62,599 nt of DNA from a virus (taxonomy: Duplodnaviria; Heunggongvirae; Uroviricota; Caudoviricetes): positions 1-62,599 of IMG/VR virus record IMGVR_UViG_3300045988_162118; one strand, given 5' to 3'. Positions 1,184 to 62,599 of this stretch are shown in pieces. Positions within the stretch are counted from its first letter, which is position 1. Each line of letters starts with the position of its first letter. The translations under genes were made by a program, and so were the position numbers. Below the pieces are notes generated by a model that had not been told where the DNA came from, searched no databases, and worked only from the letters and a program-made list of their open reading frames with translations.

Positions 1184-1194
1184 CAAGCATATCC

Positions 1195-1629
1195 TTATGC
1201 TGTAGTCGAGTTTATGGCCATAACTGCGGTATATGTTTTGCCCACATACAGCGAGTCTTCCTGGACACAAATAATGGCGATTGGCTTATTCTCGTTATCC
1301 AGAACAACCAGAGTGTTGAATGGGTAGTTTTTCCCTTCCTGCAACTGACTTTGATCAAGGTCCATTCGGACAGTAATTATCCCGCCTGAGTAGGTTGGGA
1401 CGAGGTTGATGGTGCAAAATTGACTGGTCAGTTCTGCCAGATCGAAAGCCTTTGGCAGTTCTCCAATCTCATAAGTGCCATCTCCTTTCTTAGTAACCAG
1501 TGAACTGGTACCGAAAACGGCCTTGCTGATTAAAAATCGAGAGCCTTTGTTAATGGACGATTCAGCGCGCCGCTGATAGTAATAGTCCAACAACTGACTC
1601 TTATAGAGGTTTGTTGAGACGTCAGACAT
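1195..1629 (-). CDS. R: small protein immediately upstream of S in the tail fibre operon (P1 gene R position)
   Basis: 144-aa ORF, same strand, stop 12 bp before S start; assignment by synteny only. Confidence 0.45.
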   Translation of the reverse strand: MSDVSTNLYKSQLLDYYYQRRAESSINKGSRFLISKAVFGTSSLVTKKGDGTYEIGELPKAFDLAELTSQFCTINLVPTYSGGIITVRMDLDQSQLQEGKNYPFNTLVVLDNENKPIAIICVQEDSLYVGKTYTAVMAINSTTA

Positions 1630-2547: not shown

Positions 2548-3977
2548 TCCTCCTCATACGAAATATTAAAGGTGGAGTTTTCTGTATCCAGATAAACGAA
2601 ATCGTAAAAGCCGTTGGACTCATTCCACTCGACAAATTCCAGATAAAAGTCGCGGAAATAACCCAGCGTTTCGATAAATGCCCAAACGTCTTTTTTCTTG
2701 ATTAGGATGTACTTGCCGACACGGTTCGGATCAAAGAAAGTTGAGTCACGCCCAAATTTTGTTTCCAGTGCCGACTTCAGCTCATCAGTCACGTTCTCAA
2801 TGGTCAGGCTTGCCGATATCCGCCCAGTGATGGTGATCTTAAAGGGGAGTTTTCTGACCTCTTTATACGAGAATTTCTTGTTCAACTCATTCGGCACCTT
2901 CTTAAAGGCAGCCAGGATCATTTCTTCAAGCTCTGACTGGCTTTTGTTTGGATGCCATCCTGAAATAAATATCTTATTGATATTCCGAACATTATAAGCA
3001 CCATCTAATTTCTCTTGCTGGCCTTCGCCCCATGCCTTTACCCAGGACAGTCCCGGGATGTTACGCACCAGAAAATACGTATAGTCCCCGCCCCATACGA
3101 CCTGATCATCATAGGCAAGGTAATATTGTGCACGGTTACGTGTGATCTCCGTTGTTTCGGCATCGGTACCTGCGGTTATAGGTGTCGTTGTCTTAACTGA
3201 AATCAAATTAGCTAAATTAGCCGCAGAATCGACAGGCGTCAGGTTTTGGCCAGCAACCAGGGTTATATCGCCGTTGGTGCACCATACCTTAAGCGTAATG
3301 GTCGAGCCTTCTGGCGGTATTTGCCCAATTAGCCCATCACCGAATCGAACCCCCAACTGCTCGGATGGTTTATAAAACTCAACGTAGACCTGGCTTTTAC
3401 TACCGGCTAACCGGAACATAGTGCTGGAAGACCACTGCGTGGTCTTACCATCGGTCGTCACGAATACTTCCAGCTTATAGCAGACAGCAGTGAGAGCCTT
3501 TGATAACACGACTTCCAGAAATTCTTTGGCTGCCGTAACGGTATATGTCACCTCCTGGATTTCCAACTGTGCCACTTCTACCGTACCGGTGCCGTCAACC
3601 AACCTGCATACATCCATAGTCATGTAAGGATACTGGTCGTCAGATATTAAAGGCATGTTTTTGGGGATTACCGCTGGGGCATCTTCACTTGTGGCGGGGA
3701 TCTCAATCATCCCCGATGACGGTGTTGGCTTGGTACCAACGTAACTATTCGTTTCTGCCGCTGCCAGGATAGAAGAACGCCGCGTCGCGGTCGATATAAA
3801 GCCTTCAGCCAGCGCCGCATCGGCATACTGAAAGCACCTGTAGACAATCTGGGTAATAAACAATGTCAGCATCGAGACAAATTGAGAGCCGACAAACTTC
3901 GACCAGAATGAATCTTTCTCGACAAGCTCTTCAAACTCTGCACGAATACTGTCTTTAGTAGGTGTTGTTTTACTCAT
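2544..3977 (-). CDS. baseplate-like structural protein (P1 bplA position)
   Basis: 477-aa ORF, start overlaps upstream stop, tail operon context. Confidence 0.4.
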   Translation of the reverse strand: MSKTTPTKDSIRAEFEELVEKDSFWSKFVGSQFVSMLTLFITQIVYRCFQYADAALAEGFISTATRRSSILAAAETNSYVGTKPTPSSGMIEIPATSEDAPAVIPKNMPLISDDQYPYMTMDVCRLVDGTGTVEVAQLEIQEVTYTVTAAKEFLEVVLSKALTAVCYKLEVFVTTDGKTTQWSSSTMFRLAGSKSQVYVEFYKPSEQLGVRFGDGLIGQIPPEGSTITLKVWCTNGDITLVAGQNLTPVDSAANLANLISVKTTTPITAGTDAETTEITRNRAQYYLAYDDQVVWGGDYTYFLVRNIPGLSWVKAWGEGQQEKLDGAYNVRNINKIFISGWHPNKSQSELEEMILAAFKKVPNELNKKFSYKEVRKLPFKITITGRISASLTIENVTDELKSALETKFGRDSTFFDPNRVGKYILIKKKDVWAFIETLGYFRDFYLEFVEWNESNGFYDFVYLDTENSTFNISYEEE

Positions 3978-4333
3978 AGCACCACGTCCTGTGTGATAGT
4001 TATATCCCTGATACGAATGGATATTTTCAACTTATCAAAAGCATCTCCCTCGGCTACTGACAAGCCAGAAATCGGTATGTCGGGTAAATCTACCGTCAGT
4101 TTTTGCAAAAGCATTGCCTCAACCGCAATTTGAACATGCGACAAGTTGGTCGGTTCGTGTTTAAACTGCGGTAAAACATTGCCCCATGACGGATCTCCGT
4201 ATACCTCACCCTGATAAGTGTTTAGCCACTCATATAAACGAGCGCCCCAGGCCTCCTCCTGGGACTCATACGTTTTTACGCCGGATAACTCCAGCGTCAG
4301 CAAAGGATCAATTTCGTTATTGTTGGCCATCAA
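3974..4333 (-). CDS. hypothetical morphogenesis protein
   Basis: 119-aa ORF translationally coupled between Sit and downstream structural ORF. Confidence 0.35.
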   Translation of the reverse strand: MMANNNEIDPLLTLELSGVKTYESQEEAWGARLYEWLNTYQGEVYGDPSWGNVLPQFKHEPTNLSHVQIAVEAMLLQKLTVDLPDIPISGLSVAEGDAFDKLKISIRIRDITITQDVVL

Positions 4334-7300
4334 TCAACTCTCGCGTAGTCATTCATCAACGGATCATCAATTGACAGTGGCACCGTGCGCATAACGCCCG
4401 GTTGAGGCGTGCTGACCTTTACGACAGTTCCCTGGCCTTTCGCCGAGTCTTTAGTGTGCTCTTCAATCCTGGCAAGCAATGAGGTCATCTGCGCAAACAG
4501 CCGCTTCGTTTCACCATCAAGTGAAACGGTATTATCAGCCAACTGCATTGTCGGCTTGGCACCGGAGCCGCCAAGGTCACTAATAACCTGTCCGTCTATC
4601 TGCATACGACCGGTTGGTTGCTGCAAATCGTTGGCGGCAGTCGTCACCTGGGACGTGGAGGCTGGTTCAGGCGCATTATTTTTCCGCATCCCCGGCGAGT
4701 TGCGGAGTTTATCAAATAGTCCATCAATCCCCATTTGTGCGCCGAGTTGGTCAAAGTAACTTGAGTTGCTGGCCACCGGACGCGCCTCTTCAACTGGCAT
4801 CGGAGTATCAACATACACATTGCCAGCTGCTGTTGCGGTCCCCTTCCCTCGTGCACGTTCTTCGAGCGTTCCCTGAACGACTTCCCGACGCATACCCCGG
4901 CCATTCATGAATTTGTTGACCAGATCGTTAACGCCAACAGCATTGCCAATTTTGTCTACCAGACCGCCTTTCTCAAACGGGCTATCACCAGGGGTAAACG
5001 CCAGGCCAGTAGACTGATCGATAACAGCGTTATCAGGCAGTGGTCCCCTCACTCCATATTGCGCCCCACCCTGTGCTCCTGCTCCAGGTGTATAGATTTC
5101 ACCACCTAAATAGCGAGCACGATGAGTATTGACCTTGATCGCGTACTCACGGTTTTCTTTCGATAAGTCACCTGTGCCTTTTTTCCACTTATTGATAGTG
5201 CCAAACCCAGCATTATATGCAGTGATGGCCTCGTTTAAGTCTCCATTGGCTTGCTTCAGATATTTGCTCATGAGAAGAGCCGCAGCTTCTGCCGATTTCA
5301 CAGGATCAAACGATTCACCTTCAGCTAAGCCAGTCTCTTCACGAGCAATCCCCGTGAACTGAAACATCCCCAGAGCACCGGTTTGGGATTTTGCATACGG
5401 ATTACCACCAGATTCAGTTGCAGCAATCGCGTAAAGAGTGCCTTCTGGAAGACCGTATTTATTCTCTAGTTCGGCAAAATACGGAGCCAACTTATCGAGA
5501 TTTGCCTTACCTTCAGCGCCAAGACTTCCGACTTTTACATCCAAGTTGCCATTGTTGTAGGTATCCGCAGCTTTCTGAATGTCATTCCTGGTGCCAGTGG
5601 TATTAAGCGACGATGATGACGAGCTATTTTGACCAATAGCTTTATCAATTTTCTGCAACGCGCTATTGCCCGTTTCTACGGCATTTGCATTGATAATCTG
5701 ATTAGCAGTTTCTTTAACTGTTTTATTGCTATCTTTCGCCGTGTCCAGTGCCGCATTTATCACGCGGGTAACAATATTAGTCTGTTTGGCATCGGATTCA
5801 GTTTTAGAATCAGATGTCTCCTGGTGGCTATTAACCGGAGCTTTTAACTCTGGAGTGATTTCTTTCGCATTAGCCTCGCCGATCGGATTGGGTATTTTTG
5901 ATACAATCATTGCCGCAGGGGTATTTTTAACGGCATCAACCGCTGCATCTAATGCTTTACCGGGGAAATTTTTAACCCCATCCCAAATATTACCAGCCGC
6001 CTCTTTAATATGTTTCCCTGGGTTCTTAATGAAATCAATTGCACTATCAATTGCATCACTGAAAACCTGTTTCAGGTTATCGACAGTAAAGAAGTCTTTG
6101 ATGGCATCCAGCTTTTCAAGCAGCTTATTAGATGTATCGCTAAACCATGCTGAAACAGCATCACCAATCTTTGCTGTGTAATCATCGAACTTGGTAGAAA
6201 TGGTGTCGCCAAGGTTAGAAATATATGTTTCTAAGTTGGTAATCCCACTATCAATGGCCTGGGCAATACTTTCCGTCGAAAATGATTGCAACATATTGCC
6301 GATATCCTCAAATCCAAGTGATTTGAGAACCTCACCAATGGCGCTGCTAATACCAGATACCAGTCCCCCCATATCAAGAACATTAGCTAACGTATAAGCG
6401 GCTTTTTGCTGGAATGATGGATCTTGTCCTGATTTAAGCCCAAACGCTCGACGTTGCGCTTCTGTATCATTCCAACCGGTTACCGCATCATAAATACCTC
6501 CAGCCACTGTGCCGACTAGGGGAATTGCGCGTAACGCCCCTTTACCAACTGCCTTTAATCCAAGTTTACCTGCTGCCCGGGCAGCCAAATCTCCGCCTTC
6601 ATGGGCGAGAGTCTTCTTGCCACCACCGCGTAGCATTCCTACAAGTTTCTTTGCCCCCAGAGCGCCAAAAGCGAGTGCTCCAGCTTTTTTCAGCATGCCA
6701 CGCCCCATTAACAACGACGCGACGCCACCGGCCCCCTTCCCTAACAGGCTAAATAGTTTGGACAGCAAGCCGCCCTTCTTTTTCCCGGTGTTTTTGGCTA
6801 TCTGATCAAGGGCGCGGAGAATCTTGTCATTGCCCTCTTTAATTTCGCTGGTCTGCTCCTGAAGTTCCTGAACCGTCCGTTTTTGGGTGTTAACCTGAAC
6901 GACATCGGCACTATTTTGCGATTTACGCCTAAAAAAACCTTTTCTACGGCTGTTATCGTCATTGCCACGAATCACATCGGCAATAGACTTTCTGGCACCA
7001 TTAAGCGATCCACCAACTTCTTTTGATATCCCGCCAAGCTCCTTCCCTGCTGCCCACAATGGACCAGCAACGGCATAACCTAACGCATCGACGGCACGAG
7101 TCTCTGAAGGGTTACCTATGCCTTCAGCTACTTTTGACAGTTTTTTTAATAAACCTGATTCAGCATTTAGACGCTCATCATCCTCTTTGCGCCTAGCCTT
7201 TTCAGCACGTTCAGCACGGGCATCTTCCGCTGCGGCCTTACTCCCTGACTTTCCAATAAAACGACCACGCGCATCGCGTTGGTTTTGGCTTTTTTGCGCA

Positions 7301-7722
7301 CCGCCTTTTTGACCGAACATTTCGCGAGCGTGTTCGGCTGCTTCGGTCCGTTGCGCCTTTACATCTTCTGTTATAGCCTTCTTGCGTCGTTTTTTACCCT
7401 TTCGCGTAGTTGATTTGGCCTGCGGTTCCTGTAGAGCAACATCCTCCTGAACTACACGAGAAACGTCCCCTAAATTAAGCCGTTTCATTGCCTCAACAAT
7501 AGGGTCCACTGATGGCGCATTGGCCACAAAGTCTGGCCGGGAATTTTCGATTGTGCGATTTAATGCCGACACACTGCGAGAGACAGGATCAACTGTAGCA
7601 ACTCGCCCCCCTTTCAAATCTTCAACGGCTTCCCGAATACCTGCAAGCTCTTCCAGCTCTTTTGCGCTGGCGGTTTCAACCGTCCTTATCACATCGTCAA
7701 TGTTGGCGTTTTTTCTTTCCAT
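4330..7722 (-). CDS. sit: tail injection transglycosylase / tape-measure-like protein with lytic transglycosylase domain
   Basis: 1130 aa; Gly/Ala/Lys-rich N-terminal half; SLT-like motif ATESGGNPYAKSQTGALGMFQF; size and position match P1 Sit. Confidence 0.75.
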   Translation of the reverse strand: MERKNANIDDVIRTVETASAKELEELAGIREAVEDLKGGRVATVDPVSRSVSALNRTIENSRPDFVANAPSVDPIVEAMKRLNLGDVSRVVQEDVALQEPQAKSTTRKGKKRRKKAITEDVKAQRTEAAEHAREMFGQKGGAQKSQNQRDARGRFIGKSGSKAAAEDARAERAEKARRKEDDERLNAESGLLKKLSKVAEGIGNPSETRAVDALGYAVAGPLWAAGKELGGISKEVGGSLNGARKSIADVIRGNDDNSRRKGFFRRKSQNSADVVQVNTQKRTVQELQEQTSEIKEGNDKILRALDQIAKNTGKKKGGLLSKLFSLLGKGAGGVASLLMGRGMLKKAGALAFGALGAKKLVGMLRGGGKKTLAHEGGDLAARAAGKLGLKAVGKGALRAIPLVGTVAGGIYDAVTGWNDTEAQRRAFGLKSGQDPSFQQKAAYTLANVLDMGGLVSGISSAIGEVLKSLGFEDIGNMLQSFSTESIAQAIDSGITNLETYISNLGDTISTKFDDYTAKIGDAVSAWFSDTSNKLLEKLDAIKDFFTVDNLKQVFSDAIDSAIDFIKNPGKHIKEAAGNIWDGVKNFPGKALDAAVDAVKNTPAAMIVSKIPNPIGEANAKEITPELKAPVNSHQETSDSKTESDAKQTNIVTRVINAALDTAKDSNKTVKETANQIINANAVETGNSALQKIDKAIGQNSSSSSSLNTTGTRNDIQKAADTYNNGNLDVKVGSLGAEGKANLDKLAPYFAELENKYGLPEGTLYAIAATESGGNPYAKSQTGALGMFQFTGIAREETGLAEGESFDPVKSAEAAALLMSKYLKQANGDLNEAITAYNAGFGTINKWKKGTGDLSKENREYAIKVNTHRARYLGGEIYTPGAGAQGGAQYGVRGPLPDNAVIDQSTGLAFTPGDSPFEKGGLVDKIGNAVGVNDLVNKFMNGRGMRREVVQGTLEERARGKGTATAAGNVYVDTPMPVEEARPVASNSSYFDQLGAQMGIDGLFDKLRNSPGMRKNNAPEPASTSQVTTAANDLQQPTGRMQIDGQVISDLGGSGAKPTMQLADNTVSLDGETKRLFAQMTSLLARIEEHTKDSAKGQGTVVKVSTPQPGVMRTVPLSIDDPLMNDYARVD

Positions 7723-10423: not shown

Positions 10424-10474
10424 TAATTTATCTCCTTTGGATATTAATATTTTAATTAGTTAACCACCATATAT

Positions 10475-11122
10475 TCACCATTCATAGGGTAAATTAAGCG
10501 CTTTTAAACCTTGCTGGAAAGTATTAAGAGATCCGTTTTTTTGTTGTTCCATTTTTTCGCGTGCAGCTTTCTCATACTGCTCCATCCGTTGGTTATACTC
10601 TTGCAATTCCTCCGGGGAGAGGTTTCCCATTGGGGAGTTTGTACCCGGCCCCCTGGCCCGTTCTTCAAGCGTACCCTGAACGTTTTGATGGCGCATTCCT
10701 GGGGCATTTCTGATTGAGTCAATGCCATTTCTTCCAACATCTTCTTTATTAACGGCATTGCTCGCCACCAGCACCCCCCAGCTAGGGATAGCAAAATCAG
10801 GAGCGGTTTCGCATGCCTTTACCATATAATCGAAAGAGCTTCGATTGATCTCGTTTGCGTCGGGATTTAATAGGCGAGAATATTGATATTTAGCATTTTC
10901 GTTGGTTGCGACTTTATACAGTTCCTGCTGCACCATCGCTTCAGAAAGTTTAAGGCGCTTCATATCTGACAGTAACTTCTTGCGCATGGATTCGTCTTCA
11001 CTGACAGCAAATCCGTAAACGTGCCCAAGGTATTTCGTATAATCGGTACAAATCTCCTTTACGCTTGATGCTGCATTAACAGTCCCAGGCATAAATAATA
11101 ACGGTAGTAATAGTTTTCTCAT
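10475..11122 (-). CDS. secreted SimC-like protein candidate carrying a Sit-like motif
   Basis: Start moved to internal Met (MRKLLLPLLFMPGTVNA signal peptide; track ORF starts at 11149); contains GMRHQNVQGTLEERARGPGT, near-identical to a Sit segment. Confidence 0.4.
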   Translation of the reverse strand: MRKLLLPLLFMPGTVNAASSVKEICTDYTKYLGHVYGFAVSEDESMRKKLLSDMKRLKLSEAMVQQELYKVATNENAKYQYSRLLNPDANEINRSSFDYMVKACETAPDFAIPSWGVLVASNAVNKEDVGRNGIDSIRNAPGMRHQNVQGTLEERARGPGTNSPMGNLSPEELQEYNQRMEQYEKAAREKMEQQKNGSLNTFQQGLKALNLPYEW

Positions 11123-11218
11123 TATAACCTCACCTGCCTTATAACTCATTTAGGGTACATATTTTCGCCTTTAAAAAAAAGAGGTTATTAGATCCAATTG
11201 TGCATTTATTAAACAAAC

Positions 11219-11235
11219 AATGCTCTAATAAATTT
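11219..11235 (+). promoter_or_regulatory. C1 operator-like box upstream of the icd/ant operon
   Basis: AATGCTCTAATAAATTT, one mismatch to ATTGCTCTAATAAATTT. Confidence 0.5.
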
Positions 11236-11399
11236 GTATTTTTAAGTCACGAATGCTATCTTTTCGCATCATATTGACCTTTTAATCGTTCAGGCTTATA
11301 GTTCCGCCGTCGTAGCAAATTCTGCGACCAGGTTTGACAGCCTGAATGATTGTGCGGACAACCGCAGATTTCCGATATTGCGGTATTTTTGTGTCCGTT

Positions 11400-11549
11400 A
11401 AACCGCGTTACGCCCAAATTATGGTGGGGCGTGATGGGGAGGCTTCGGCCTGCTGGTTTCACAATCGCCAGTCTGTCAACCCTGTCACGTCCTGCCACCT
11501 GTTTGACAGCGGGTAGCAGGTTGTTAAACCTGATTGTGAGGCCGTAACT
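11400..11549 (+). ncRNA. leader region expected to hold a c4-like antisense repressor RNA (not delimited)
   Basis: Position upstream of icd/ant as in P1 immI; repeated GTTTGACAG elements at 11326 and 11490; boundaries not determined. Confidence 0.25.
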
Positions 11550-11771
11550 ATGGTTAATGCCAATCCTTGCGCACGCCAAGAATTCATCTGGCGTTTCTAT
11601 TCCTGTAAAAAACACCACTATCACTTCGTTATCGCAGCAACAGAAGACGAAGCACGCTCTCAATTGCCTGACGGCCCCTGCATTTTTACTGCCCGTTTTT
11701 CAACTAACTCGCGCAATCCACTTAGTTACTGGAGCCTCCCCTTCTCTGCCGACGTTCAGGGGGGTTTATGA
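11550..11771 (+). CDS. icd: Icd-like cell division inhibitor
   Basis: 73-aa ORF directly upstream of and overlapping antirepressor start, as in P1 immI. Confidence 0.55.
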   Translation: MVNANPCARQEFIWRFYSCKKHHYHFVIAATEDEARSQLPDGPCIFTARFSTNSRNPLSYWSLPFSADVQGGL

Positions 11772-12811
11772 AAAAACCTCTCGTCACCCGTAATGACATA
11801 GCCGAAGCGATCGCCCTGCATACTGCCTGTATGCCGACACGGGAGATCCCCGGCGCAATTGCCAACTATTTCATGATAACCAGACGTTTTTATACCCGAA
11901 CAGATAAGGCTGTGATCAACAAGCTACTGATAGCCGAGATCAGGGATTATTTGATTGAACAAGGACGTCTACGTTACGCAACAGTGGCAGCAGAAATGAG
12001 AAAGGAGGCACATAGAATGACCGGTAATAATTTGAATGTTGAAAAAACAGCACCTGTTACGTCAGCTACGCCAGCACCAGCCGTGAATATCATCCCCAAC
12101 ACCGGAGACACAATCGACAGCCTGACACTGTTAAAGATGGTCAATGAAGCGCGTAAGTTATGTGGGGAACCAGAGGTTCGGAACAACAAATTCATCGAAA
12201 AAATACTCGACGAATTAGAAGGTGAGGACGGTTACACAAAAAGTGCAACCGTGCCGCCAGGTGGCGGTACGCCTATGGTTGTCATAACCATGACCTACAA
12301 ACAAGCCCTGCGAGTCGCCGCACGCGAATCAAAAGCCGTCCGCCGTTCGCTGATCGACAAACTGGAAGAATTGCAGCAGGCAAACTCCCCTACCCCATCG
12401 ATCCCCCAAACATTACCAGAAGCTCTACGCCTGGCTGCCGAGTTAGCAGAACAGAAAATGCAGCTGGAACAACAGCTGGTGGCCGCTGCCCCTAAAGTCG
12501 ATTTTGCCGACCGGGTATCAGTGGCTAATGGAATCCTGATCGGGAACTTTGCAAAGGTCGTTGGACTTAAGCAAAACGCCCTTTTCTCATGGTTGCGCCA
12601 GAATGGCATTCTCATGGCTTTTGGAGCGCGCAAAAACGTACCGCGCCAACAGTACATCAACGCCGGGTATTTCACGGTGAAAGAAGTGGTGCTGGATGAT
12701 GAAAATGGCTACCAGATACGGCTGACGCCCCAATTAACGGGTAAAGGCCAGCAGTGGTTAACTCGCAAGCTACTTGATGCTGGTTTGTTAAAACCAGTAG
12801 CAATAGGTTAA
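11768..12811 (+). CDS. ant: antirepressor (Ant) with KilA-C/ANT-type C-terminal domain
   Basis: 347 aa; C-terminal 130 aa closely paralogous to the C-terminus of the downstream KilA-like protein. Confidence 0.6.
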   Translation: MKKPLVTRNDIAEAIALHTACMPTREIPGAIANYFMITRRFYTRTDKAVINKLLIAEIRDYLIEQGRLRYATVAAEMRKEAHRMTGNNLNVEKTAPVTSATPAPAVNIIPNTGDTIDSLTLLKMVNEARKLCGEPEVRNNKFIEKILDELEGEDGYTKSATVPPGGGTPMVVITMTYKQALRVAARESKAVRRSLIDKLEELQQANSPTPSIPQTLPEALRLAAELAEQKMQLEQQLVAAAPKVDFADRVSVANGILIGNFAKVVGLKQNALFSWLRQNGILMAFGARKNVPRQQYINAGYFTVKEVVLDDENGYQIRLTPQLTGKGQQWLTRKLLDAGLLKPVAIG

Positions 12812-12822
12812 CAAAAGAAAAA

Positions 12823-12848
12823 AACCTGCCAGCAAACTGGCAGGTTTC
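12823..12848 (+). terminator. hairpin after ant
   Basis: AACCTGCCAG-CAAA-CTGGCAGGTT followed by TTCT; weak U tract. Confidence 0.4.
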
Positions 12849-12889
12849 TGAGCAGATCGTCCAACCCGATCTGGATCGAGTTAGAAAAA

Positions 12890-12906
12890 TTTGCTCTAAT
12901 AAATTT
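12890..12906 (+). promoter_or_regulatory. C1 operator-like box upstream of kilA-repL
   Basis: TTTGCTCTAATAAATTT. Confidence 0.5.
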
Positions 12907-12975
12907 CGTTTTCTAAGTGCAAAGAATCACCATTTCGAGCTGGTGATTGAAGGTTGATGCAAATTTGGAGAAAAA

Positions 12976-13776
12976 ATGCAACAAACATTCAATGCGGATA
13001 TGAATATATCAAACCTTCATCAAAATGTCGATCCTTCAACCACTCTGCCTGTTATTTGTGGTGTTGAAATTACGACCGACCGCGCTGGCCGTTACAACCT
13101 TAATGCTCTACACAGAGCGAGCGGACTCGGTGCCCATAAAGCGCCAGCTCAATGGCTAAGAACGCTGTCAGCCAAACAGCTCATCGAAGAGCTTGAAAAA
13201 GAAACTATGCAGAATTGCATAGTTTCGTTCGAAGGCCGTGGCGGCGGCACTTTTGCCCATGAATTGCTCGCAGTGGAGTACGCAGGCTGGATTTCTCCCG
13301 CGTTTCGGCTGAAGGTAAACCAGACATTTATCGACTATCGAGCCGGAAGATTACAACCTGCTATTCCGAAGAGCCTCCCAGAAGCTCTCCGTTTGGCTGC
13401 TGACCTGGCAGAGCAAAAGCAACGGCTGGAGCAAAAAATGCTGATGGATGCACCTAAAGTCGAATTCGCCGAACGCGTTGCTACCGCCAGCGGGGTTCTA
13501 ATCGGCAACTATGCCAAAGTGCTCGGCCTGGGCCAAAACTATCTCTTCACCTGGTTGCGTGATAACGGAATTCTGATCGCAACCGGTGAACGCAGGAACG
13601 TCCCCAAACAAGAATACATATCCCGTGGGTATTTCACCCTTAAAGAAACCGTGATCGATACAAGCAATGGAAGCAGGATTTCTTTCACGACTCGTATAAC
13701 CGGCAAAGGTCAGCAGTGGCTGATGAAGCGATTGCTTGATGCTGGTGTGCTGGTACCTGTCGCGGCAACGCGCTAA
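12976..13776 (+). CDS. kilA: KilA (KilA-N domain plus ANT-like C-terminal domain)
   Basis: 266 aa; KilA-N-like N-terminus (YNLNALHRASG...GGGTFAHELLAVEYAGWISP); size and position as P1 KilA. Confidence 0.6.
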   Translation: MQQTFNADMNISNLHQNVDPSTTLPVICGVEITTDRAGRYNLNALHRASGLGAHKAPAQWLRTLSAKQLIEELEKETMQNCIVSFEGRGGGTFAHELLAVEYAGWISPAFRLKVNQTFIDYRAGRLQPAIPKSLPEALRLAADLAEQKQRLEQKMLMDAPKVEFAERVATASGVLIGNYAKVLGLGQNYLFTWLRDNGILIATGERRNVPKQEYISRGYFTLKETVIDTSNGSRISFTTRITGKGQQWLMKRLLDAGVLVPVAATR

Positions 13777-13805
13777 CAGACGTAGTAAGAACCACCAGCA
13801 TTGTA

Positions 13806-14651
13806 ATGCTGGCTAAAGTCACTTTCCTGAGCTGTATAACGATGAGCGATTTTACTTTTTCTGGCTATGAATTGGCCTGCTTTGTAACACACTCCGGTCT
13901 ATCCCGTAGCGCCGGGCATATCCTGTCGCAATGTGCAAATCTCGCGGCAACAACCAGTGAATACTTCATTCACAAGCCTCACCGCCTGATCGCGGCAGAA
14001 ACTGGTTATAGCCAATCAACCGTCGTTCGTGCATTCCGTGAAGCTGTAAACAAAGGAATTCTGTCTGTAGAGATTGTTATCGGCGATCACCGTGAACGTC
14101 GCGCTAACCTGTACCGGTTTACACCATCCTTTTTGGCCTTCGCACAACAAGCCAAAAATGCGCTGATTGAAAGCAAATTAAAGATCTCTTCAGCGGCAAC
14201 CAAGGTTAAAGCTGTTCTCGCTAAGACATTGGCTTTATTTAATTTTTTATCCACACCCCCATGTCAAAATGATACCCCCTCCCCCTGTCAGGATGACGTG
14301 GCAATAAAGAATAAGAAGTCACAAGTTAAAAAAACAAAAAGATCAGTTTCCGGCGGTGCCGGAACGACCAGACTCAAAAAATTGACTTCATGGATCGCTG
14401 AGGCAAAAGCAAAGGCTGACAATCTGCGGTTATCCAAAAAACGCGCTCAAAAACATGAGTTCAAGCAGAAGGTAGAGGCGGCAGCGCGGAAATATGCTTA
14501 CCTGAAGAACAAGCGTTCTCCTGATATTGGCGGGGTATCAAACTTCGATAATCTGCCGCATTGCATGACGGTAAACGAAGCTCTTAATGCGGTTTTAGCC
14601 AAAAATAAAGATAACGAACAATGGGGTATACCGGCAGGATTCAGAGGGTGA
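13806..14651 (+). CDS. repL: RepL-like lytic replication protein
   Basis: 281 aa directly downstream of kilA; synteny and size. Confidence 0.5.
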   Translation: MLAKVTFLSCITMSDFTFSGYELACFVTHSGLSRSAGHILSQCANLAATTSEYFIHKPHRLIAAETGYSQSTVVRAFREAVNKGILSVEIVIGDHRERRANLYRFTPSFLAFAQQAKNALIESKLKISSAATKVKAVLAKTLALFNFLSTPPCQNDTPSPCQDDVAIKNKKSQVKKTKRSVSGGAGTTRLKKLTSWIAEAKAKADNLRLSKKRAQKHEFKQKVEAAARKYAYLKNKRSPDIGGVSNFDNLPHCMTVNEALNAVLAKNKDNEQWGIPAGFRG

Positions 14652-14700
14652 TAGATTGCTCTAATCTGGAGTCACCTGGCGTTTTCAGTTTGAGGTCGGA

Positions 14701-14947
14701 GATGCAATCTGATTTTTTACAGTTAGCGATCGCTTTTGCAGGATATGTTTGTATTGGCTTCTGTGTATACATGATCAGCCGAAAAATGCTTGTCGATATC
14801 GACCGCAAAGAACAAGCAGAGAAGATCTTAGTATGGATTTTCTTTGGCGCGGTCTGGCCATTAGGGATCATGTTTGCTGCAACATTTCTTCTGATGTGGA
14901 TATTCACCCTTCCAGGTGATTTCTATAGAAAAAAAGCCAGACATTGA
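14701..14947 (+). CDS. small membrane protein
   Basis: Internal Met start of track ORF 14621..14947; two hydrophobic segments. Confidence 0.3.
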
Positions 14948-15070
14948 TACAATCGTTGCGGGTGCTTGAGGCTATCTGCTTCAGGCATTACCCGAAAAGC
15001 AGATAGAAGAAAGCCCCAGATAACATTACGCGTCCTGCAAGACGCTTAACATTAATCTGAGGCCATATCT

Positions 15071-15277
15071 ATGCTTAGCATACGTAGATTAGCCTCTTAC
15101 CGACCAAAAGGTCAAGGAGAAGCAGGCTATGAAGCAGCAAAAAGCGATGTTAATCGCTCTGATCGTCATCTGTTTAACCGTCATTGTGACGGCACTGGTA
15201 ACGAGGAAAGACCTCTGCGAGGTACGAATCCGAACCAGCCAGACGGAGGTCACTGTCTTCACAGCCTACGAATCTGA
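15071..15277 (+). CDS. mok-like overlapping reading frame
   Basis: 68-codon ORF in a different frame covering the start of the hok-like gene. Confidence 0.3.
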   Translation: MLSIRRLASYRPKGQGEAGYEAAKSDVNRSDRHLFNRHCDGTGNEERPLRGTNPNQPDGGHCLHSLRI

Positions 15278-15284
15278 AAGGTAA
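15129..15284 (+). CDS. hok: Hok/Gef-family type I toxin
   Basis: Not in ORF track (51 aa). AAGGAG RBS; MKQQKAMLIALIVICLTVIVTALVTRKDLCEVRIRTSQTEVTVFTAYESER, close to the Hok pattern LTRKSLCEIR...EVAAFMAYES. Confidence 0.7.
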   Translation: MKQQKAMLIALIVICLTVIVTALVTRKDLCEVRIRTSQTEVTVFTAYESER

Positions 15285-15360
15285 GAGACCTGGCGGGGAG
15301 AGATCTCCGCCACTCTTCGTGTGTCAGGTATCCTCAATGCACCCTTTCCTCTCCAAATAA

Positions 15361-15383
15361 AAAAGCTCCCGAAGGAGCTTTAA
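15361..15383 (+). terminator. hairpin at 3' end of hok locus
   Basis: AAGCTCC-CGAA-GGAGCTT then T/A-rich run. Confidence 0.35.
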
Positions 15384-15400
15384 AATACAAGGGATGACTC

Positions 15401-15910
15401 TTAATCCCACTCAATCCAGTTGTAGACGATACGAAGTGACGGGCGCACAGCGGCAGTCACATCTTCGGTACTAAAGTCGATTGCATCACTGTAGATTTTG
15501 CAGTCCAACATTTCAATTGTTGTAGCAGCTTTTGTCACAGCGTTAACCCCGGAAGATTTGGATTCAGGGGTCGCAGCCATCGTGATATCAACATAGTCCT
15601 TCGCCGCAATGCGATCTTTAATGAACTGAAGAATATCGCCTTCGATAGTCTCCACGCACTGGACCTGGATTTCCCCAGAGTTTCGAATTGGACCGTGCTG
15701 GTTGAACTTCACACCATTCGGACCATAGTCCTCCACATCCTCGCGGGTCATTTCAGGAATTTGCGACGTGCGAACCAGTACGCTGATATCTTCATGGCCT
15801 GCAAAAGTGAGCTGGAATTCAGAAGATACCAGTCGTTCGCCTTTGGCCGCGTTGGCAGTATAGCGGCCCTTAATAAATTTACGGTTTCCCTTAGTGTTAT
15901 TGTGCCCCAT
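15401..15910 (-). CDS. tail tube-like structural protein
   Basis: 169 aa, first gene of a minus-strand structural block; size typical of myovirus tube proteins. Confidence 0.35.
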   Translation of the reverse strand: MGHNNTKGNRKFIKGRYTANAAKGERLVSSEFQLTFAGHEDISVLVRTSQIPEMTREDVEDYGPNGVKFNQHGPIRNSGEIQVQCVETIEGDILQFIKDRIAAKDYVDITMAATPESKSSGVNAVTKAATTIEMLDCKIYSDAIDFSTEDVTAAVRPSLRIVYNWIEWD

Positions 15911-47113: not shown

Positions 47114-50100
47114 CTATATTTTTCCGCCTACGCCTTTAAACTTCTCAATAAACGAGACGATTTTCTGGAAAACTGCCTGTTTTTTCGTTTTATATTGCGG
47201 ATTTAACGGACTAAGTTTTGGTAATGTTTCATTTAATTCTGTGCCATTTTCGGTGGCATATTCGCGTTTTAAAGACGTGCGAATATAGCGTTTTGCAGCA
47301 TCTTCATTGAGATTTTCTTCTTTTATCAATGCTTCTGCTTCACGTTGCTGTTCGCGTTGAGCAAACGTAAAGAATGCGTCAATGATGCTGGCTTTGTCCG
47401 GTAAATCATCCAGGTTCGTTTGCTGAATAAAATCGACCACCAGGCCCTCTTTAGCACGGTTCCCTAGGCTTGAACGAATTAAGCGTTTGACCTCTTCGAT
47501 CATTTCGCCCTTGCCTTTATTTTGTCTGTTGTGTTCGAAAATCAGTCCAAGGATATAATCCAGGTTTATTTCCTGAGACTTCAGCAAATCGACCTCAAAA
47601 ACTACGTCATCCCAGTCAGTGGTTGATTTCTCTTTTTTCTCAGCTTCTTTCTCACGGCGCTGCCAGTCGCGAATATCGTTATAGGCAGAACGATAATCCT
47701 GAATCTTGCGATCAGCAGGGAGACGAATTGTTTGCAATTCAGCGAACTTTTCATCATCCACATAATGTTCTGCTTTGAATTTTTCTACCGCAACAGGATC
47801 GCTAAGATCGATTTGTTGCAGGGCTTTTAGCGTGGCAAATTCATCATAGTTTTGCAGGATGTTCTCGGCACGCAGGTATTCGCCAAACAGTTTAACGAAG
47901 TCTTTCTTCTCTTTTTCACTTTCAATACTGGTAGGGTCAGGGAACCGTTGTTCCAGTTCTGAAACTACTGCCATAAAGCCGCGTTTGGCTTCACCGGTGG
48001 CAGCATCAGTAAAACCTTCCATATACTCTGCATAACTCTTTTCTAACACCACATTTTTGGTATTTTTATCACCAAACAGCGTTATGGCATCAATGGTTGA
48101 GCGTTCCAGATCCCGAAAAGTGACAATGTTACCGAAGGTTTTAGTGGCGTTATAAATGCGGTTGGTGCGGGAAAATGCCTGCATCAGGCCGTGAAAACGC
48201 AAGTTTTTATCGACGAATAGCGTGTTCAATGTTGGAGCGTCGAAGCCGGTTAAAAACATCCCAACGACAATTAACAGATCGATATCCTGATTTTTAACCC
48301 GTTGGGCTAAATCGCGATAGTAGTTCTGAAAACCGTTACCGTCGGTGCTGAAGTTAGTTTTAAAATAGCTGTTATACTCACGAATTGCAGCGTCAAGAAA
48401 CTCTTTAGCACTGCTGTCCATTGCGCTGGTATCAAAAGTTTCATCGGAAATTTCACCAATGGCATTTTGTTCTTCATTAGCGGCAAAGGAGAAGATTGTC
48501 GCAACACGCAGCGGTTTATAAGTTGCAGATTTATTAGCGGCTTCCTCTTGTAACCGTTTAAACGCCGCGTAATAGGCTTTTGCAGCATCCACGCTGCTCA
48601 CTGCCAACATAGCATTAAAACCTTTTGCGCCAGGGAAAGTACGGTGCGTCTTCTGGCGGAAGTTATTCAGAATATATTGCGTAATTTCCTGTATACGCAT
48701 GGGATGAAGAAACGCCTGCTGATTTTCAGCCGCACTTAGTTTTTTCTCGTCGGTTTCTGTCTCTAAAGACTTAAACTGTGGCCGCACATCGTTATAGTCC
48801 ACCTTGAATTTGAGCACTTTTTCATCACGAATCGCATCGGTAATAACATATGAATGCAATTCACGACCAAATACGCTGGCGGTCGTTTCTGAGCCTAAAG
48901 CGTTTTCCGGGAAAATAGGGGTACCGGTAAAACCAAACTGATAATAGCGTTTGAATTTCTTCTTCAGGTTTTTCTGCGCTTCTCCAAACTGGCTGCGGTG
49001 ACATTCATCAAATATAAACACCACTTGCTGATTATATACAGGCAGGTCGCTTTCTGCTTTCATCAGGTTATTGAGTTTCTGAATAGTAGTGACGATAATT
49101 TTGTTATCGTCCTTATCCAGATTTCGTTTAAGGCCTGCGGTATTTTCCGAGCCGTTGACGCTGTCTGGCGAAAAACGCTGATATTCCTTCATGGTCTGGT
49201 AATCGAGGTCTTTCCTGTCGACCACGAAGAAGACTTTATCAATAAAGTCCAGCTCTGTTGCCAGACGCGCGGCTTTAAAGCTGGTGAGGGTTTTACCAGA
49301 ACCGGTAGTGTGCCAGATATACCCACCGCTTTCCGGTTTTGACCAGTTCTTCGCTGTAAAGGAGCTCTTAATTTTCCACAGAATGCGCTCGGTGGCAGCA
49401 ATCTGGTACGGTCGCATCACCAGTAGCGTCTGACTGCTGTCAAAAACGCTGTAGTTCACCAGAACATTAAGCAGAGTATGTTTCTGGAAAAAGGTAGCGG
49501 TAAAATCTTTGAGGTCTTTAATCAGCGTGTTGTCTGATTTCGCCCAGTTCATGGTGAAGTCAAAACTGTTTTTATCGCGCTTTGTTGTGTTGGCAAAATA
49601 ACGGGTATCGGTGCCGTTAGAAATGACAAACAGTTGCAGATACTTAAACAGGGAATTTTCGCTGTTAAAACTCTCTTTACTGTAACGATGTATCTGGTTG
49701 AAAGCCTCACGAATCGCCACGCCGCGCTTTTTCAGTTCGATTTGTACCAGTGGTAAGCCATTAACCAGGATCGTGACGTCATAACGGTTAGCATGAGAAC
49801 CCGTCTGTTCAAACTGCTGGATAATCTGCACCTTATTGCGCATGAGATTCTTTTTATCTATCAAATAGATGTTCTCAAGTCGCTCGTCATCAAAAATAAA
49901 GTCGCAAATATAGTCGATATGGATTTTACGGGTCTTATCCAGAATGCCATCGCTCGGGTTGTCCAGATACTGCTCCGTGAAACGCCGCCACTCGCTGTCA
50001 TTAAACACCACACCATTGAGGCTCTGAAGCTGTTCCCGAACGTTGGCCAGCATCGCTGACTGTGATTTTACCGAAATAAATTCATAGCCCTGATTCCGCA

Positions 50101-50230
50101 GGTCTTGAATCAGTTCACGTTCCAGGTCCGATTCGCTCTGGTAGCTGTCGCCTGTTGGCTCAGCTTTGATGTACTTATCAAGAACGATAAAGTTATTGGA
50201 TTCAGCAATGGTATGTGTTTGATGAGTCAT
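47114..50230 (-). CDS. hsdR: Type I restriction enzyme R subunit
   Basis: Start at MTHQTHT with AAGGA RBS (track starts 50290); about 1038 aa; helicase motifs TGSGKT and FDECHRSQ. Confidence 0.85.
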
Positions 50231-50351
50231 AGCGCATCCTTTGTGCCGTCTGGCAAGGGCCGGAAGGGAGTTAAGAGTGACTTCCGGCACGTAAAAAATA
50301 GTCTATATACAGACCGGATGTTAAGGTGGCCCGGTCGGTAGCAACGGTCAA

Positions 50352-51569
50352 TTAATTACTGACAGTTTCAGGTTTTGGGAAACTGAACAGTAAATCACGA
50401 TAGTACTCGTATTGTTTCTGGCGCAACTCGATTTCACGCGGGAGACCTTCGGTGATGGAAGCTGCGATTGCATCAAACTTATCTAGAATATCCACAATAC
50501 GCCCCTGTTCGTCTAAAGATTTTTGAGGGTGAGATGGGTATGGAATAGGTACTCTGACTTGTTTCAGTGCATTAGCATTAAACTGTGGTTGCCCGCCACC
50601 AGATACTAATTTATTAGCCTGTTCCCAAAAAAAATCACTTTGTGCAAAGTGCCAGTAATATTTGGCATTAATAATCGTTTCATTTAGGTTCAACTTTATT
50701 AAAAAACCAGCGTATACTGCTGGATAATCTTCTTCAAAAATCATTGTTTTACCAAAGGTTGCACCAGTCCTTGCCATGAGTAAATCATTTTTGTCTAAGG
50801 TATATTTCTCATTTTCCTCATTTAATTCAACGTACATTGGGTTTTCTTTCGATAGCTTCCCGTCTTTATTTATGTCAGTAATTCTCACGAAACGGGCATC
50901 TCCTGAGTCCATGGCTTTGGCTGCATATCCATATGTAAAATTCCCAATTTCCCCCAAAGTCTTCCACTCAACCTCACCCTCTTTAAAACTCAACAACTGG
51001 TCGCGATAGTAGTTGTACTGTTTTTTACGCATGTTAAGCTCAGCGGTAAGCTCAGCGGTAAGTGCAGTAAATTTATCCAGAATCCGAACGATTTCAGACT
51101 GGATGGCAAGGGATTTTTCCGGATTATCCGGGCAGGGGATTGGTACAGGTATCTCAATTAATTGTCCTTTAGTTAATTTTGCCCTTCCTCCCCCGGTAAG
51201 GAAGGGAAGGAAATTAACGATGCATAAATAATGATATAGAAATCTAGAATGAACTCTTTCTTTTCCTCGTACGACATGAACATGGTTGTTTGCCCAGAAT
51301 TTACCAGTTGCATATTGAATTGAATAATTTTCTAAACTAGCCGAGCCATCTTCTGCAATTAAGACATATTCACCATCGTGGGTATATCCATCCACATAGT
51401 CTTGAATGTTGTTAGCACCATAATAGGGCGTCTCGCCTGCAATGCGCAAAGAGGCTTTTACTGGCTTTCTTCCATTATTCGCTATTTCGAAGAGTGAAGT
51501 ATCACCAAGATTTCTCCACTCAACTTCAACCCCATCCAGCAATTTTTCCAGATAACTTAACTCGCTCAT
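50352..51569 (-). CDS. hsdS: Type I specificity subunit, Type IC-like
   Basis: 405 aa; two TRDs; central conserved region [28 protein letters not shown] with two TAEL repeats; second conserved region [16 protein letters not shown]. Confidence 0.85.
51037..51060 (-). repeat. 12-bp tandem repeat (2 units) encoding TAEL-TAEL in hsdS
   Basis: AGCTCAGCGGTA x2 on plus strand = ACCGCTGAGCTT x2 on coding strand. Confidence 0.8.
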
Positions 51570-53128
51570 TTTTGCACCTCGCAGCCTTCAATTTCAGCCA
51601 CAATCGCATCAATATCTTTACGCAACTGGTCGATTTTGCTGACCGTGGTTTTCAGTTCTGCATTCAACTCAGCGATATCGATAATTTCGCGAGTATCTTT
51701 CGCTTCAACATAACTGCTCACCGACAGGTTATAGTCATTCGCGACAACAGTCTCAAACGCAACAGATTTCGCCAGATGGGCAACATCTTCCTTGCCGGCA
51801 AATACCTGCATAATCTGTTCGATATGGGCATCGGTCAGGATGTTGTTATTAGTCTCTTTTTTGAATAGCTCGCTGGCGTCAATAAACTGAACGTTGGTAT
51901 CGGTTTTATGTTTAGACAACACCAGAATATTGACGGCAATGGTGGTGCCAAAGAACAGATTCGGTGCCAGTGAAATCACGGTTTCGACATAGTTATTGTC
52001 GACCAGATACTGACGGATTTTCTGCTCCGCACCGCCACGGTAAAAAATACCCGGGAAGCAGACAATCGCAGCACGACCTTTGGCAGAAAGATAGTTCAGC
52101 GCATGTAATACAAACGCAAAGTCAGCTTTGGATTTGGGGGCCAGAACGCCAGCTGGGGCAAAACGTTCATCGTTAATCAGCGTCGGGTCATCGCTGCCAA
52201 TCCATTTCACCGAATACGGCGGGTTAGAAACGATGGCATCAAACGGTTTTTCATCTCTGAAGTGCGGTTCAGTCAGCGTATTGCCCAGCTTGATATCAAA
52301 CTTGTCGTAGTTGATGTTGTGCAAAAACATGTTCATACGCGCCAGGTTATAGGTCGTATGGTTGATTTCCTGACCGAAAAAGCCTTCTTCGATGATGTGG
52401 TTATCAAACTGTTTTTTCGCCTGCAACAACAGTGAGCCGGAACCCGCTGCCGGGTCGTAGATTTTGTTAACGTTGGTCTGCCCGTGCATAGCCAGTTGTG
52501 CAATCAGCTTGGAGACGTGCTGCGGTGTAAAGAACTCACCACCTGACTTACCGGCATTTGCCGCATAGTTAGAAATCAGGAACTCATAGGCATCACCGAA
52601 CAGGTCAATCTGATGTTCGTTGAAGTCACCAAGTTTTAACCCTTCAACCCCTTTCAGAACCGCAGCCAGGCGGGCATTTTTATCTTTAACGGTGTTACCC
52701 AGGCGGTTACTGGTGGTATCGAAATCAGCAAACAAACCTTTGATGTCTGCTTCTGAAGGGTAGCCGTAAGCAGAACTTTCGATAGCAACGAAGATGCTGT
52801 TTAAATCTGCATTCAGTCTGTCATTAGTATTTGCTTTCGCAGCTACGTTGCAGAAAAGCTGACTGGGGTAGATGAAGTAGCCTTTAGTTTTGATGGCATC
52901 GTCTTTAATGTCATCAGTAATTACGCTGTCATCCAGTTTCGCATAACAGATACTGTCATCACCGGCTTCAATATAACTGGAAAAATTTTCGCTGATAAAA
53001 CGGTAGAAAAGTGCGCCCAGAACGTATTGCTTAAAATCCCATCCATCGACCGAACCCCTGACATCGTTAGCAATTTGCCAGATTTGACGATGAAGCTCTG
53101 CACGTTGTTGAATACTTGTCATTTTCAT
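51566..53128 (-). CDS. hsdM: Type I DNA methyltransferase M subunit (N6-adenine)
   Basis: 520 aa; NPPY motif ([11 protein letters not shown]); SAM-binding region; 4-bp overlap with hsdS start. Confidence 0.85.
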
Positions 53129-60494: not shown

Positions 60495-61526
60495 ATGTCC
60501 AATTTACTGACCGTACACCAAAATTTGCCTGCATTACCGGTCGATGCAACGAGTGATGAGGTTCGCAAGAACCTGATGGACATGTTCAGGGATCGCCAGG
60601 CGTTTTCTGAGCATACCTGGAAAATGCTTCTGTCCGTTTGCCGGTCGTGGGCGGCATGGTGCAAGTTGAATAACCGGAAGTGGTTTCCCGCAGAACCTGA
60701 AGATGTTCGCGATTATCTTCTATATCTTCAGGCGCGTGGTCTGGCAGTGAAAACTATCCAGCAACATTTGGGCCAGCTAAATATGCTTCATCGTCGGTCC
60801 GGTCTGCCACGACCAAGTGACAGCAATGCTGTTTCACTGGTCATGCGACGGATCCGAAAAGAAAACGTTGATGCCGGTGAACGTGCAAAACAGGCACTGG
60901 CGTTCGAACGCACTGATTTCGACCAGGTTCGTTCACTCATGGAAAATAGCGATCGCTGCCAGGATATACGTAATCTGGCATTTCTGGGGATTGCTTATAA
61001 CACCCTGTTACGTATAGCCGAAATTTCCAGGATCAGGGTTAAAGATATCTCACGTACTGACGGTGGGAGAATGTTAATCCATATTGGCAGAACGAAAACG
61101 CTGGTTAGCACCGCTGGTGTAGAGAAGGCACTTAGCCTGGGGGTAACTAAACTGGTTGAGCGATGGATTTCTGTCTCTGGTGTAGCTGATGATCCGAATA
61201 ACTACCTGTTTTGCCGCGTCAGAAAAAATGGTGTTGCCGCGCCATCATCCACCAGCCAGCTATCAACTCGCGCCCTGGAAGGGATTTTTGAAGCAACTCA
61301 CCGATTGATTTACGGGGCAAAAGATGACTATGGTCAGCGATACCAGGCCTGGTCTGGACATAGTGCCCGTGTCGGTGCCGCGCGAGATATGGCCCGCGCC
61401 GGAGTTTCTATACCGGAGATCATGCAAGCTGGCGGCTGGACCAACGTAAATATTGTCATGAACTACATTCGTAACCTGGATAGTGAAACGGGGGCAATGG
61501 TGCGCCTGCTGGAAGATGGCGATTAG
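60495..61526 (+). CDS. cre: Cre tyrosine recombinase
   Basis: 343 aa starting MSNLLTVHQNLPALPVDATSDEVRKNLMDMFRDRQAFSEHTWKMLLSVCRSWAAWCKLNNRKWFPAEPEDVRDYLLYLQARGLAVKTIQQHLGQLNMLHRRSGLPRPSDSNAVSLVMRRIRKENVDAGERAKQALAFERTDFDQVRSLMENSDRCQDIRNLAFLGIAYNTLLRIAEI; recognised as Cre with a few substitutions. Confidence 0.95.
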   Translation: MSNLLTVHQNLPALPVDATSDEVRKNLMDMFRDRQAFSEHTWKMLLSVCRSWAAWCKLNNRKWFPAEPEDVRDYLLYLQARGLAVKTIQQHLGQLNMLHRRSGLPRPSDSNAVSLVMRRIRKENVDAGERAKQALAFERTDFDQVRSLMENSDRCQDIRNLAFLGIAYNTLLRIAEISRIRVKDISRTDGGRMLIHIGRTKTLVSTAGVEKALSLGVTKLVERWISVSGVADDPNNYLFCRVRKNGVAAPSSTSQLSTRALEGIFEATHRLIYGAKDDYGQRYQAWSGHSARVGAARDMARAGVSIPEIMQAGGWTNVNIVMNYIRNLDSETGAMVRLLEDGD

Positions 61527-61576: not shown

Positions 61577-61888
61577 ATGCGGAAGGATTTCAAAATAGAC
61601 GGAAAATATGTGGTGCTGTCTGTAAGCTCTCAAATTCAGTCACCATCTGTCATTGTCACCGTAAAGTTGAGCGATAGGATGCCTGATATCGACTCGATAT
61701 CTGTTGCGTTCCCCGTTAAAAGCATGCGGAGTGCTGAACATTTTGTGATGAATGCAACGGAGGAGGAAGCGCGGCGCGGGCTTACTAGAGTCATGGGGGA
61801 ATTTGGCGAACTCCTGTGTAAGGTAAACAATGCTCTTTCAATCAGTTCAGCAAGGTCCAAAGCGTTAACAGCTTCCATGATGAAATAA
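61577..61888 (+). CDS. hypothetical protein downstream of cre (cra position)
   Basis: 103-aa ORF; start may be an internal Met. Confidence 0.4.
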   Translation: MRKDFKIDGKYVVLSVSSQIQSPSVIVTVKLSDRMPDIDSISVAFPVKSMRSAEHFVMNATEEEARRGLTRVMGEFGELLCKVNNALSISSARSKALTASMMK

Positions 61889-62020: not shown

Positions 62021-62037
62021 ATTGCTCTAATTGATTG
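62021..62037 (+). promoter_or_regulatory. C1 operator-like box upstream of ref
   Basis: ATTGCTCTAATTGATTG. Confidence 0.45.
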
Positions 62038-62135: not shown

Positions 62136-62570
62136 ATGAAAACAATCGAACAAAAACTTGAACAGCGCCGCGAGTGGCAGAAGGCAGCCAGAGAACGAGC
62201 GATCGCTCGGCAACGGGAAAAGTTGGCTGACCCCGCCTGGCGAGAATCGCAATATCAGAAAATGCGGGATTCTATCGACCGCCGTATCGCTAAACAGAAA
62301 GAGCGCCCACCAGCCAGCAAAACGCGGAAAAGTGCGGTAAAAATAAAATCTCGTGGCTTGAAGGGGCGAACACCGACGGAGGAGGAACAGACTATCGCCA
62401 ATGCTCTTGGCACTCTCCCCTGCATTGCCTGCTACATGCATGGAGTAATATCTGAAGAGGTGTCTCTGCACCATATCTCCGGTCGTACCGCGCCGGGTTG
62501 TCACAAAAAGCAATTGCCCCTTTGCAGATGGCACCACCAGCATGCAGCACCGGCTGAAGTAGGGGTCTGA
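62136..62570 (+). pseudogene. ref: ref (HNH-type recombination enhancement nuclease), 3'-truncated by transposon insertion
   Basis: MKTIEQKLEQRREWQKAARERAIARQREKLADPAW... through HHISGRTAPGCHKKQLPLCRWHHQHAAPAEV, then frame runs into Tn3-type repeat and stops after GV. Confidence 0.65.
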
Positions 62571-62599
62571 CGCTCAGTGGAACGATAAGTCACTCTAAG
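62562..62599 (+). mobile_element. Tn3-family 38-bp terminal inverted repeat (outer end 62562; element extends beyond window)
   Basis: GGGGTCTGACGCTCAGTGGAACGATAAGTCACTCTAAG versus recalled Tn3 IR GGGGTCTGACGCTCAGTGGAACGAAAACTCACGTTAAG. Confidence 0.7.

Follow-up and report, generated by a model that had tools for sequence, protein, structure and literature searches.

Ref (recombination enhancement function) of phage P1 and its relatives is a RecA-dependent HNH nuclease. Its N-terminal DNA-binding region is unstructured and comprises 76 residues (PMC4330346), while His153 is a zinc ligand of the active site, and mutating this residue abolishes double-strand cleavage (PMC3973344). The ref gene is also a known site of transposon insertion. 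Phage P7 (AF503408; locus L008 in our set), the classical ampicillin-resistance relative of P1, carries Tn2 in ref, flanked by a 5-bp duplication. The P7 record annotates this element as "Tn3" at 2619-7568, with an altered ref C-terminus; historically it was called Tn902, and it has been named Tn2, with blaTEM-1b (Venturini et al. 2019, PMC6906374).

A second ref::Tn2 allele is represented in public records (NZ_CP169228, CP069704, NZ_CP122848 and ERZ28628814 scaffold_78). RefSeq already annotates it as two incomplete ref pseudogenes flanking a Tn3-family region, and our search of the literature returned no paper describing this codon-142 allele. Here we compare these systems with a contig of 62,599 nucleotides (hereafter the window, meaning the whole stretch of DNA that was analyzed). 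The public records share with the window the insertion site at codon 142, the orientation of the transposon, the AAGTA target and the 144-residue fusion protein, and their backbones are up to 99.99% identical to it. They differ from it in two respects: their terminal inverted repeat (IR) is canonical, whereas that of the window deviates at four bases between IR positions 25 and 34, and they make visible a varied downstream region. The insertion is therefore real but ordinary, being already known both in kind and in instance.

Our preferred reading, to which we assign a probability of about 90%, is that the window is part of a P1-like phage-plasmid whose ref gene is interrupted by a Tn2/Tn3-type transposon, and that the contig broke at the IR of this element. 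The initial annotation had proposed a Tn3-family insertion in ref and a break at a repeated element, and our analysis supports that interpretation. The features on which the argument depends are the following.

60495-61526, plus strand: cre recombinase gene (343-aa ORF, PF00589), at the same position as cre in P1 and P7; a backbone marker.
61577-61888: c8, between cre and ref.
62021-62037, plus strand: Oref, the C1-controlled operator upstream of ref (coordinates transferred from the P1 annotation, where Oref is 1962-1978).
62136-62570, plus strand: truncated ref, codons 1-142 of 186, followed by Gly-Val and a TGA stop supplied by the IR.
62557-62561, plus strand: AAGTA, the 5-bp target; relatives carry a second copy at the far end of the transposon.
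62562-62599, plus strand: Tn2/Tn3-type (Tn3-family) terminal IR of 38 bp, running from outer to inner end; it corresponds to the bla-proximal IR (IRR) of relatives with the same junction.
62586-62599, plus strand: 3'-terminal 14 bases of the contig, corresponding to IR positions 25-38; each of the four differences from the canonical IR (A25T, C28G, G33T, T34C) falls here.

The backbone genes of the window stand in P1 order, as expected of a P1-like phage-plasmid (Punavirus); the order tested comprised cra-cre-c8-ref, the c1 repressor, pacA/pacB, phd-doc, the C4 antisense RNA and the tRNA cluster. The cre, c8 and ref genes, with cra in the same block, lie at a constant offset of 60059 to the annotated P1 genome, four tRNAs were detected along with the C4 antisense RNA and its targets, and the gene order agrees with that of annotated relatives. 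The last 700 bases of the window match 705 plasmid records and phages P1, P7, SJ46 and RCS47 at 95-99% identity.

Several other features of this backbone were recorded. ARAGORN predicted the four tRNA genes at window positions 31804-32050 and 33495-33570 (Asn, Tyr, Thr and a CAT-anticodon Met/Ile). Three tRNAs (Asn, Thr and Ile) are described for P1 itself, and the 87-nt tRNA-Tyr (41.9 bits in Rfam) may be an extra tRNA of this lineage. Window 14960-15134 matches the sok antitoxin RNA over its full length (Rfam RF01794; 114.9 bits), which points to a hok/sok-type toxin-antitoxin locus on this phage-plasmid, besides phd/doc. Three large ORFs (1058, 405 and 520 aa) adjoin phd/doc on the minus strand at 47114-53128; relatives carry a type I restriction-modification system (HsdR, HsdS and HsdM) at this position, and the HsdM part was confirmed by Pfam matches (PF12161 and PF02384) on the near-identical gene of L012, the relative closest to the window.

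We then located the interruption of ref. The gene starts with ATG at 62136, and base 62561 is the third base of codon 142 (...A-E-V), directly followed by the IR from 62562. Hence the insertion lies after the AEV codons, as had been proposed, and the product would have 144 residues, 142 of Ref and a terminal Gly-Val. Around 700 plasmid records with an intact ref align to the window up to base 62561 and stop there, and phages P1, P7, SJ46 and RCS47 likewise align as far as this base and no further. The breakpoint is thus fixed to the base. One copy of AAGTA is visible in the window at the junction (62557-62561); intact ref also has a single AAGTA.

The truncated protein still matches the Pfam profile for RecA-dependent nucleases (PF16786) with 97.7 bits against a cut-off of 26.9, the match covering only profile positions 1-63 of 103. 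The Ref of an intact relative aligns end to end (residues 1-186) with the P1 Ref structure (PDB 3PLW), while in the window protein homology ends at residue 142, so that the complete nuclease domain with His153 is absent. The truncation takes off the last 44 residues, the active-site His153 among them, and for this reason the RecA-dependent nuclease should be inactive, although the N-terminal DNA-binding region would be kept. With its nuclease domain incomplete, ref is therefore classified as a truncated pseudogene. Because Oref lies untouched upstream, the truncated gene should still be under repressor control.

The sequence that interrupts ref is a Tn3-family terminal IR. The 3' end of the window reads ...CAGCACCGGCTGAAGTA/GGGGTCTGACGCTCAGTGGAACGATAAGTCACTCTAAG, where the slash marks the ref/IR junction and the second part is window 62562-62599. 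Compared with the canonical Tn1/Tn2/Tn3 IR (GGGGTCTGACGCTCAGTGGAACGAAAACTCACGTTAAG), 34 of 38 positions are identical; the figure of 31 of 38 in the initial annotation was too low, while its coordinates and its orientation of the repeat, from the outer GGGG to the inner TAAG, were right. Length, GGGG and TAAG ends and group match all agree with the IRs of Tn1, Tn2 and Tn3, and positions 1-24 are exact. The window departs from these IRs by four substitutions in the inner third, at IR positions 25, 28, 33 and 34, so that canonical identity is lost across the inner, transposase-binding part. A search for the exact 24-mer gave one occurrence in the window and none in 100 shuffled sequences, and the match is thus not due to chance; with up to 3 mismatches to the 24-mer or the whole 38-mer allowed, the window contains no second copy of the IR. 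The presence, position and orientation of the IR and the truncation of ref can be read directly from the sequence as given, which confirms that a Tn3-family IR interrupts ref at the window end.

The ref/IR junction is identical to the base in complete P1-like plasmids and in metagenome and genome contigs. The complete plasmids are pECY44-3 (CP069704; chicken, China), pEF45-2 (E. fergusonii, China), those of ETEC1720 and ETEC1722 (NZ_CP122848, our L002; pig, Belgium), E. coli EC052 unnamed4 (NZ_CP169228; poultry, China) and pECD97-2 (dog, China). A metagenome scan returned a single contig with this junction, ERZ507097 NODE_18 (L004), and the junction pattern had no match in GTDB representative genomes or IMG/VR. 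Further identical junctions, including L012-L016, were found in ENA, NCBI and Logan contigs via the exact 144-residue fusion protein, which is encoded on 119 public contigs (NCBI, JGI, ENA and Logan).

These relatives reveal what lies beyond the junction, and several of them hold the full transposon. In L001-L004, L006, L007 and L012-L015, the identical junction is followed by a canonical IR and blaTEM-1. More generally, all relatives whose sequence continues past the junction have blaTEM downstream of the IR, mostly right behind it, in agreement with the resistance cargo that the initial annotation had considered. In L012 and L015 the sequence continues beyond the IR and bla with tnpR, tnpA, the partner IR, AAGTA and the remaining part of ref; the beta-lactamase has 286 aa, the resolvase 185 aa (PF00239) and the transposase 1001 aa (PF13700 and PF01526). 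L002, L004 and L006 likewise show the partner IR, with AAGTA and the 3' end of ref behind it. The relatives thus read ...GCTGAAGTA/IRR...IRL/AAGTAAGAG..., with AAGTA at both ends of the transposon (L002, L004, L006 and L012), and on these sequences the repeat is the 5-bp target duplication typical of Tn3-family transposition. The partner IR, the duplication and the rest of ref, all of which the initial annotation had named as things to look for, are accordingly present in the relatives.

The closest relative, L012, aligns with the window over 10,458 bases with 3 mismatches, of which two fall inside the IR and one in the 10.4 kb of backbone. With a total of 92 kb it represents essentially the same plasmid, and it has a canonical IR and an intact transposon of 4,950 bp flanked by AAGTA. 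Other relatives show different downstream structures, either Tn2 with a floR insertion or Tn2 cut by IS26. In pECY44-3, pEF45-2, EC052, pECD97-2 and L014, IS26 cuts Tn2 soon after tnpR and joins it to resistance modules, such as aac(3)-IId, lnu(F), aadA and similar genes. The idea that a Tn3-family element continues beyond the window is thus borne out by bla, tnpR, tnpA and a partner IR in relatives with the same junction; for this isolate, whose contig stops at IR position 38 before any transposon gene, the downstream part is inferred from them. We strongly expect a region that derives from Tn2 and bears blaTEM after the window end, with bla, tnpR and tnpA or a rearranged derivative of them.

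Two variants among these relatives deserve a separate description. In the Belgian pig ETEC plasmids, the Tn2 in ref has floR-containing DNA (ETEC1722, 12664-15642) inserted 5 bases within its IR, and ETEC1722 has a second canonical copy of the IR at 15605, just ahead of blaTEM-1; this arrangement is suggestive of a nested insertion in which the IR end was duplicated. Moreover, Tn2 in ref measures 4,997 bp, and not 4,950 bp, in L004 (3672-8668) and in L013 (ERZ984387 k127_7901; 10427-15423). The additional 47 bp of L004 come from a tandem duplication within tnpA. The gene is split into two ORFs in both, of 540 and 428 aa in L004 and of 487 and 493 aa in L013, which looks like a sub-lineage with an inactivated transposase.

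Comparison with P7 shows one transposon at two sites. Over its 4,950 bp, the P7 Tn2 shares 100% identity with that of L012 (10427-15376). However, P7 carries it in ref codon 180, 116 bp further 3' than the codon-142 site of the window lineage, with the duplication TGAAA and not AAGTA. The orientation is opposite as well: in P7 the tnpA end adjoins the 5' part of ref, whereas in the window lineage it is the bla end. Unlike the window lineage, P7 keeps His153, its insertion changing only the C-terminus of Ref. As judged by site, target and orientation, the two insertions are independent events.

Both ends of the window fit short-read assembly breaks at repeats. A Logan contig of a sister plasmid (SRR7537043_179; k=31), 62,534 bp long compared with 62,599 for the window, ends at IR position 30, that is, k-1 bases into the IR. 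At the other end, the window starts inside a minus-strand tail-fibre gene (window 1-1200), in a segment that has internal repeats and is present in 3-17 copies per related genome, so the window probably begins at a repeat-induced assembly break as well. Within the window, no further copy of either contig end occurs. The break at a repeated element that had been suggested for the 3' end is therefore supported by where the sister contig stops and by the repeated tail-fibre start; it leaves the four non-canonical bases unexplained.

We next considered the origin of these four bases, all within the last 14 of the contig. Megablast did not find the variant IR in PLSDB (72,556 plasmids) or in 5,426 complete E. 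coli genomes, and a 25-mer over the variant bases was absent from IMG/VR and from the GTDB representatives (185,579 species-representative genomes). A sensitive blastn search of the 38-mer against plasmids gave 35 of 38 as its best match, to Tn3-like elements of Erwinia, Pantoea and Klebsiella oxytoca. These nearest IRs in PLSDB share only T34C with the window, and another known Tn3-family element was thus rejected as the source. A mis-join to another part of the window, to Tn2 or to a related locus was also rejected: the 14-mer, compared with the rest of the window, Tn2 and 16 fetched loci, has no other copy at up to 2 mismatches in 339 kb. So was a chimera with the IR of Tn21, Tn1000 or Tn1721, which agree with the window at 21, 27 and 17 of 38 positions. 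TIMEs (Tn3-derived miniature elements) found no support, as the first 24 bases of the IR are absent from the main text of the TIME paper.

We think it probable that the four bases are an artefact of the contig end, introduced by assembly or sequencing. The competing view is that they are real, namely four clustered substitutions in the inner transposase-binding part that perhaps fix Tn2, or a remnant of it, in place, in which case the end of the contig would have another, unrelated cause, for example a gap in coverage or a differing downstream sequence. In its favor, the bases are present in the sequence as given, the 14-mer was not copied from the window, Tn2 or the fetched loci, and the opposite contig end has no comparable cluster, being 99.8% identical to relatives from base 1. 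Yet the adjoining 10.4 kb contains one difference from L012, with its canonical IR, and four changes in 14 bases are therefore not ordinary divergence; the changes also fall on the final bases of a contig. Of the loci with this junction, the 12 that extend to IR position 38 all have the canonical IR, L016 is canonical to its end at position 30, and the variant is missing from every collection named above. Position 33 (the G of ACGYTAAG) is moreover G in each of the three other family IRs compared, those of Tn21, Tn1000 and Tn1721. Furthermore, if the variant bases were real, a break at position 38 would be unexpected, since the k-mers covering them would be unique. A real mutated IR thus seems unlikely to us, though it deserves some weight.

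How much of the transposon is left beyond the window is a related matter. The IR could stand alone or belong to a short remnant of Tn2, the rest having been deleted or replaced, for instance by IS26, so that no functional Tn3-family element would follow. The IS26-cut copies in pECY44-3, pEF45-2, EC052, pECD97-2 and L014 and the foreign floR DNA just 5 bases past the IR in ETEC1722 lend this some credit, but all relatives that pass the junction keep at least blaTEM, a bare IR is seen in none, and the closest backbone relative, L012, has an intact Tn2. We regard such a remnant as improbable. A further view would be that the 38 bases resemble an IR by chance or through vector sequence, or were joined on as a chimera by the assembler, ref being intact in the real molecule. 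Contig ends can be chimeric, and the Tn3 IR is part of common cloning vectors. Against this, the exact 24-base match is not a chance match, and the same junction, to the base, recurs in metagenomes and in complete plasmids that were obtained independently, with long reads, from China and Belgium. Beyond the transposon, those records show the target duplication and the 3' end of ref; we give this view almost no credence.

Consequently, we return to the insertion of a Tn2/Tn3-type transposon, for which we propose the following model. The contig covers some two thirds of a P1-like phage-plasmid whose full size is near 92 kb. A replicative transposon of the Tn2/Tn3 type, the usual carrier of blaTEM-1, would have transposed once into ref, at P1 coordinate 2502/2503, duplicating the target AAGTA, placing its bla end beside the 5' part of ref and leaving a 144-residue Ref fragment that lacks the last 44 residues. 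Short-read assembly would then have broken at the repeated sequence, so that the window ends at the inner edge of the 38-bp IR.

This model involves no new biology: the allele is present in complete, annotated public plasmids, and Tn2 in ref is a classical feature of P7. In P1 lysogens, Ref increases sensitivity to ciprofloxacin (Ronayne et al. 2016, PMC4713147). One may speculate, although we find it doubtful, that the loss of Ref is itself selected, combining ampicillin resistance with relief from Ref-mediated fluoroquinolone and SOS killing. There is room for such an advantage because Tn2 has hit ref at least twice independently, once in P7 and once in a lineage found on 119 or more contigs. 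If true, a benefit of Ref loss would help to explain the spread of the allele in livestock and human E. coli. That the odd IR bases are real and mark an immobilized Tn2 is a separate and lesser possibility. For annotation, ref should be treated as a pseudogene, and about 30 kb of the replicon, the resistance region included, as missing from the contig. The junction marks this contig as part of a resistance-carrying P1-like phage-plasmid, and such phage-plasmids can move blaTEM and multiresistance modules via lysogeny and plasmid inheritance.
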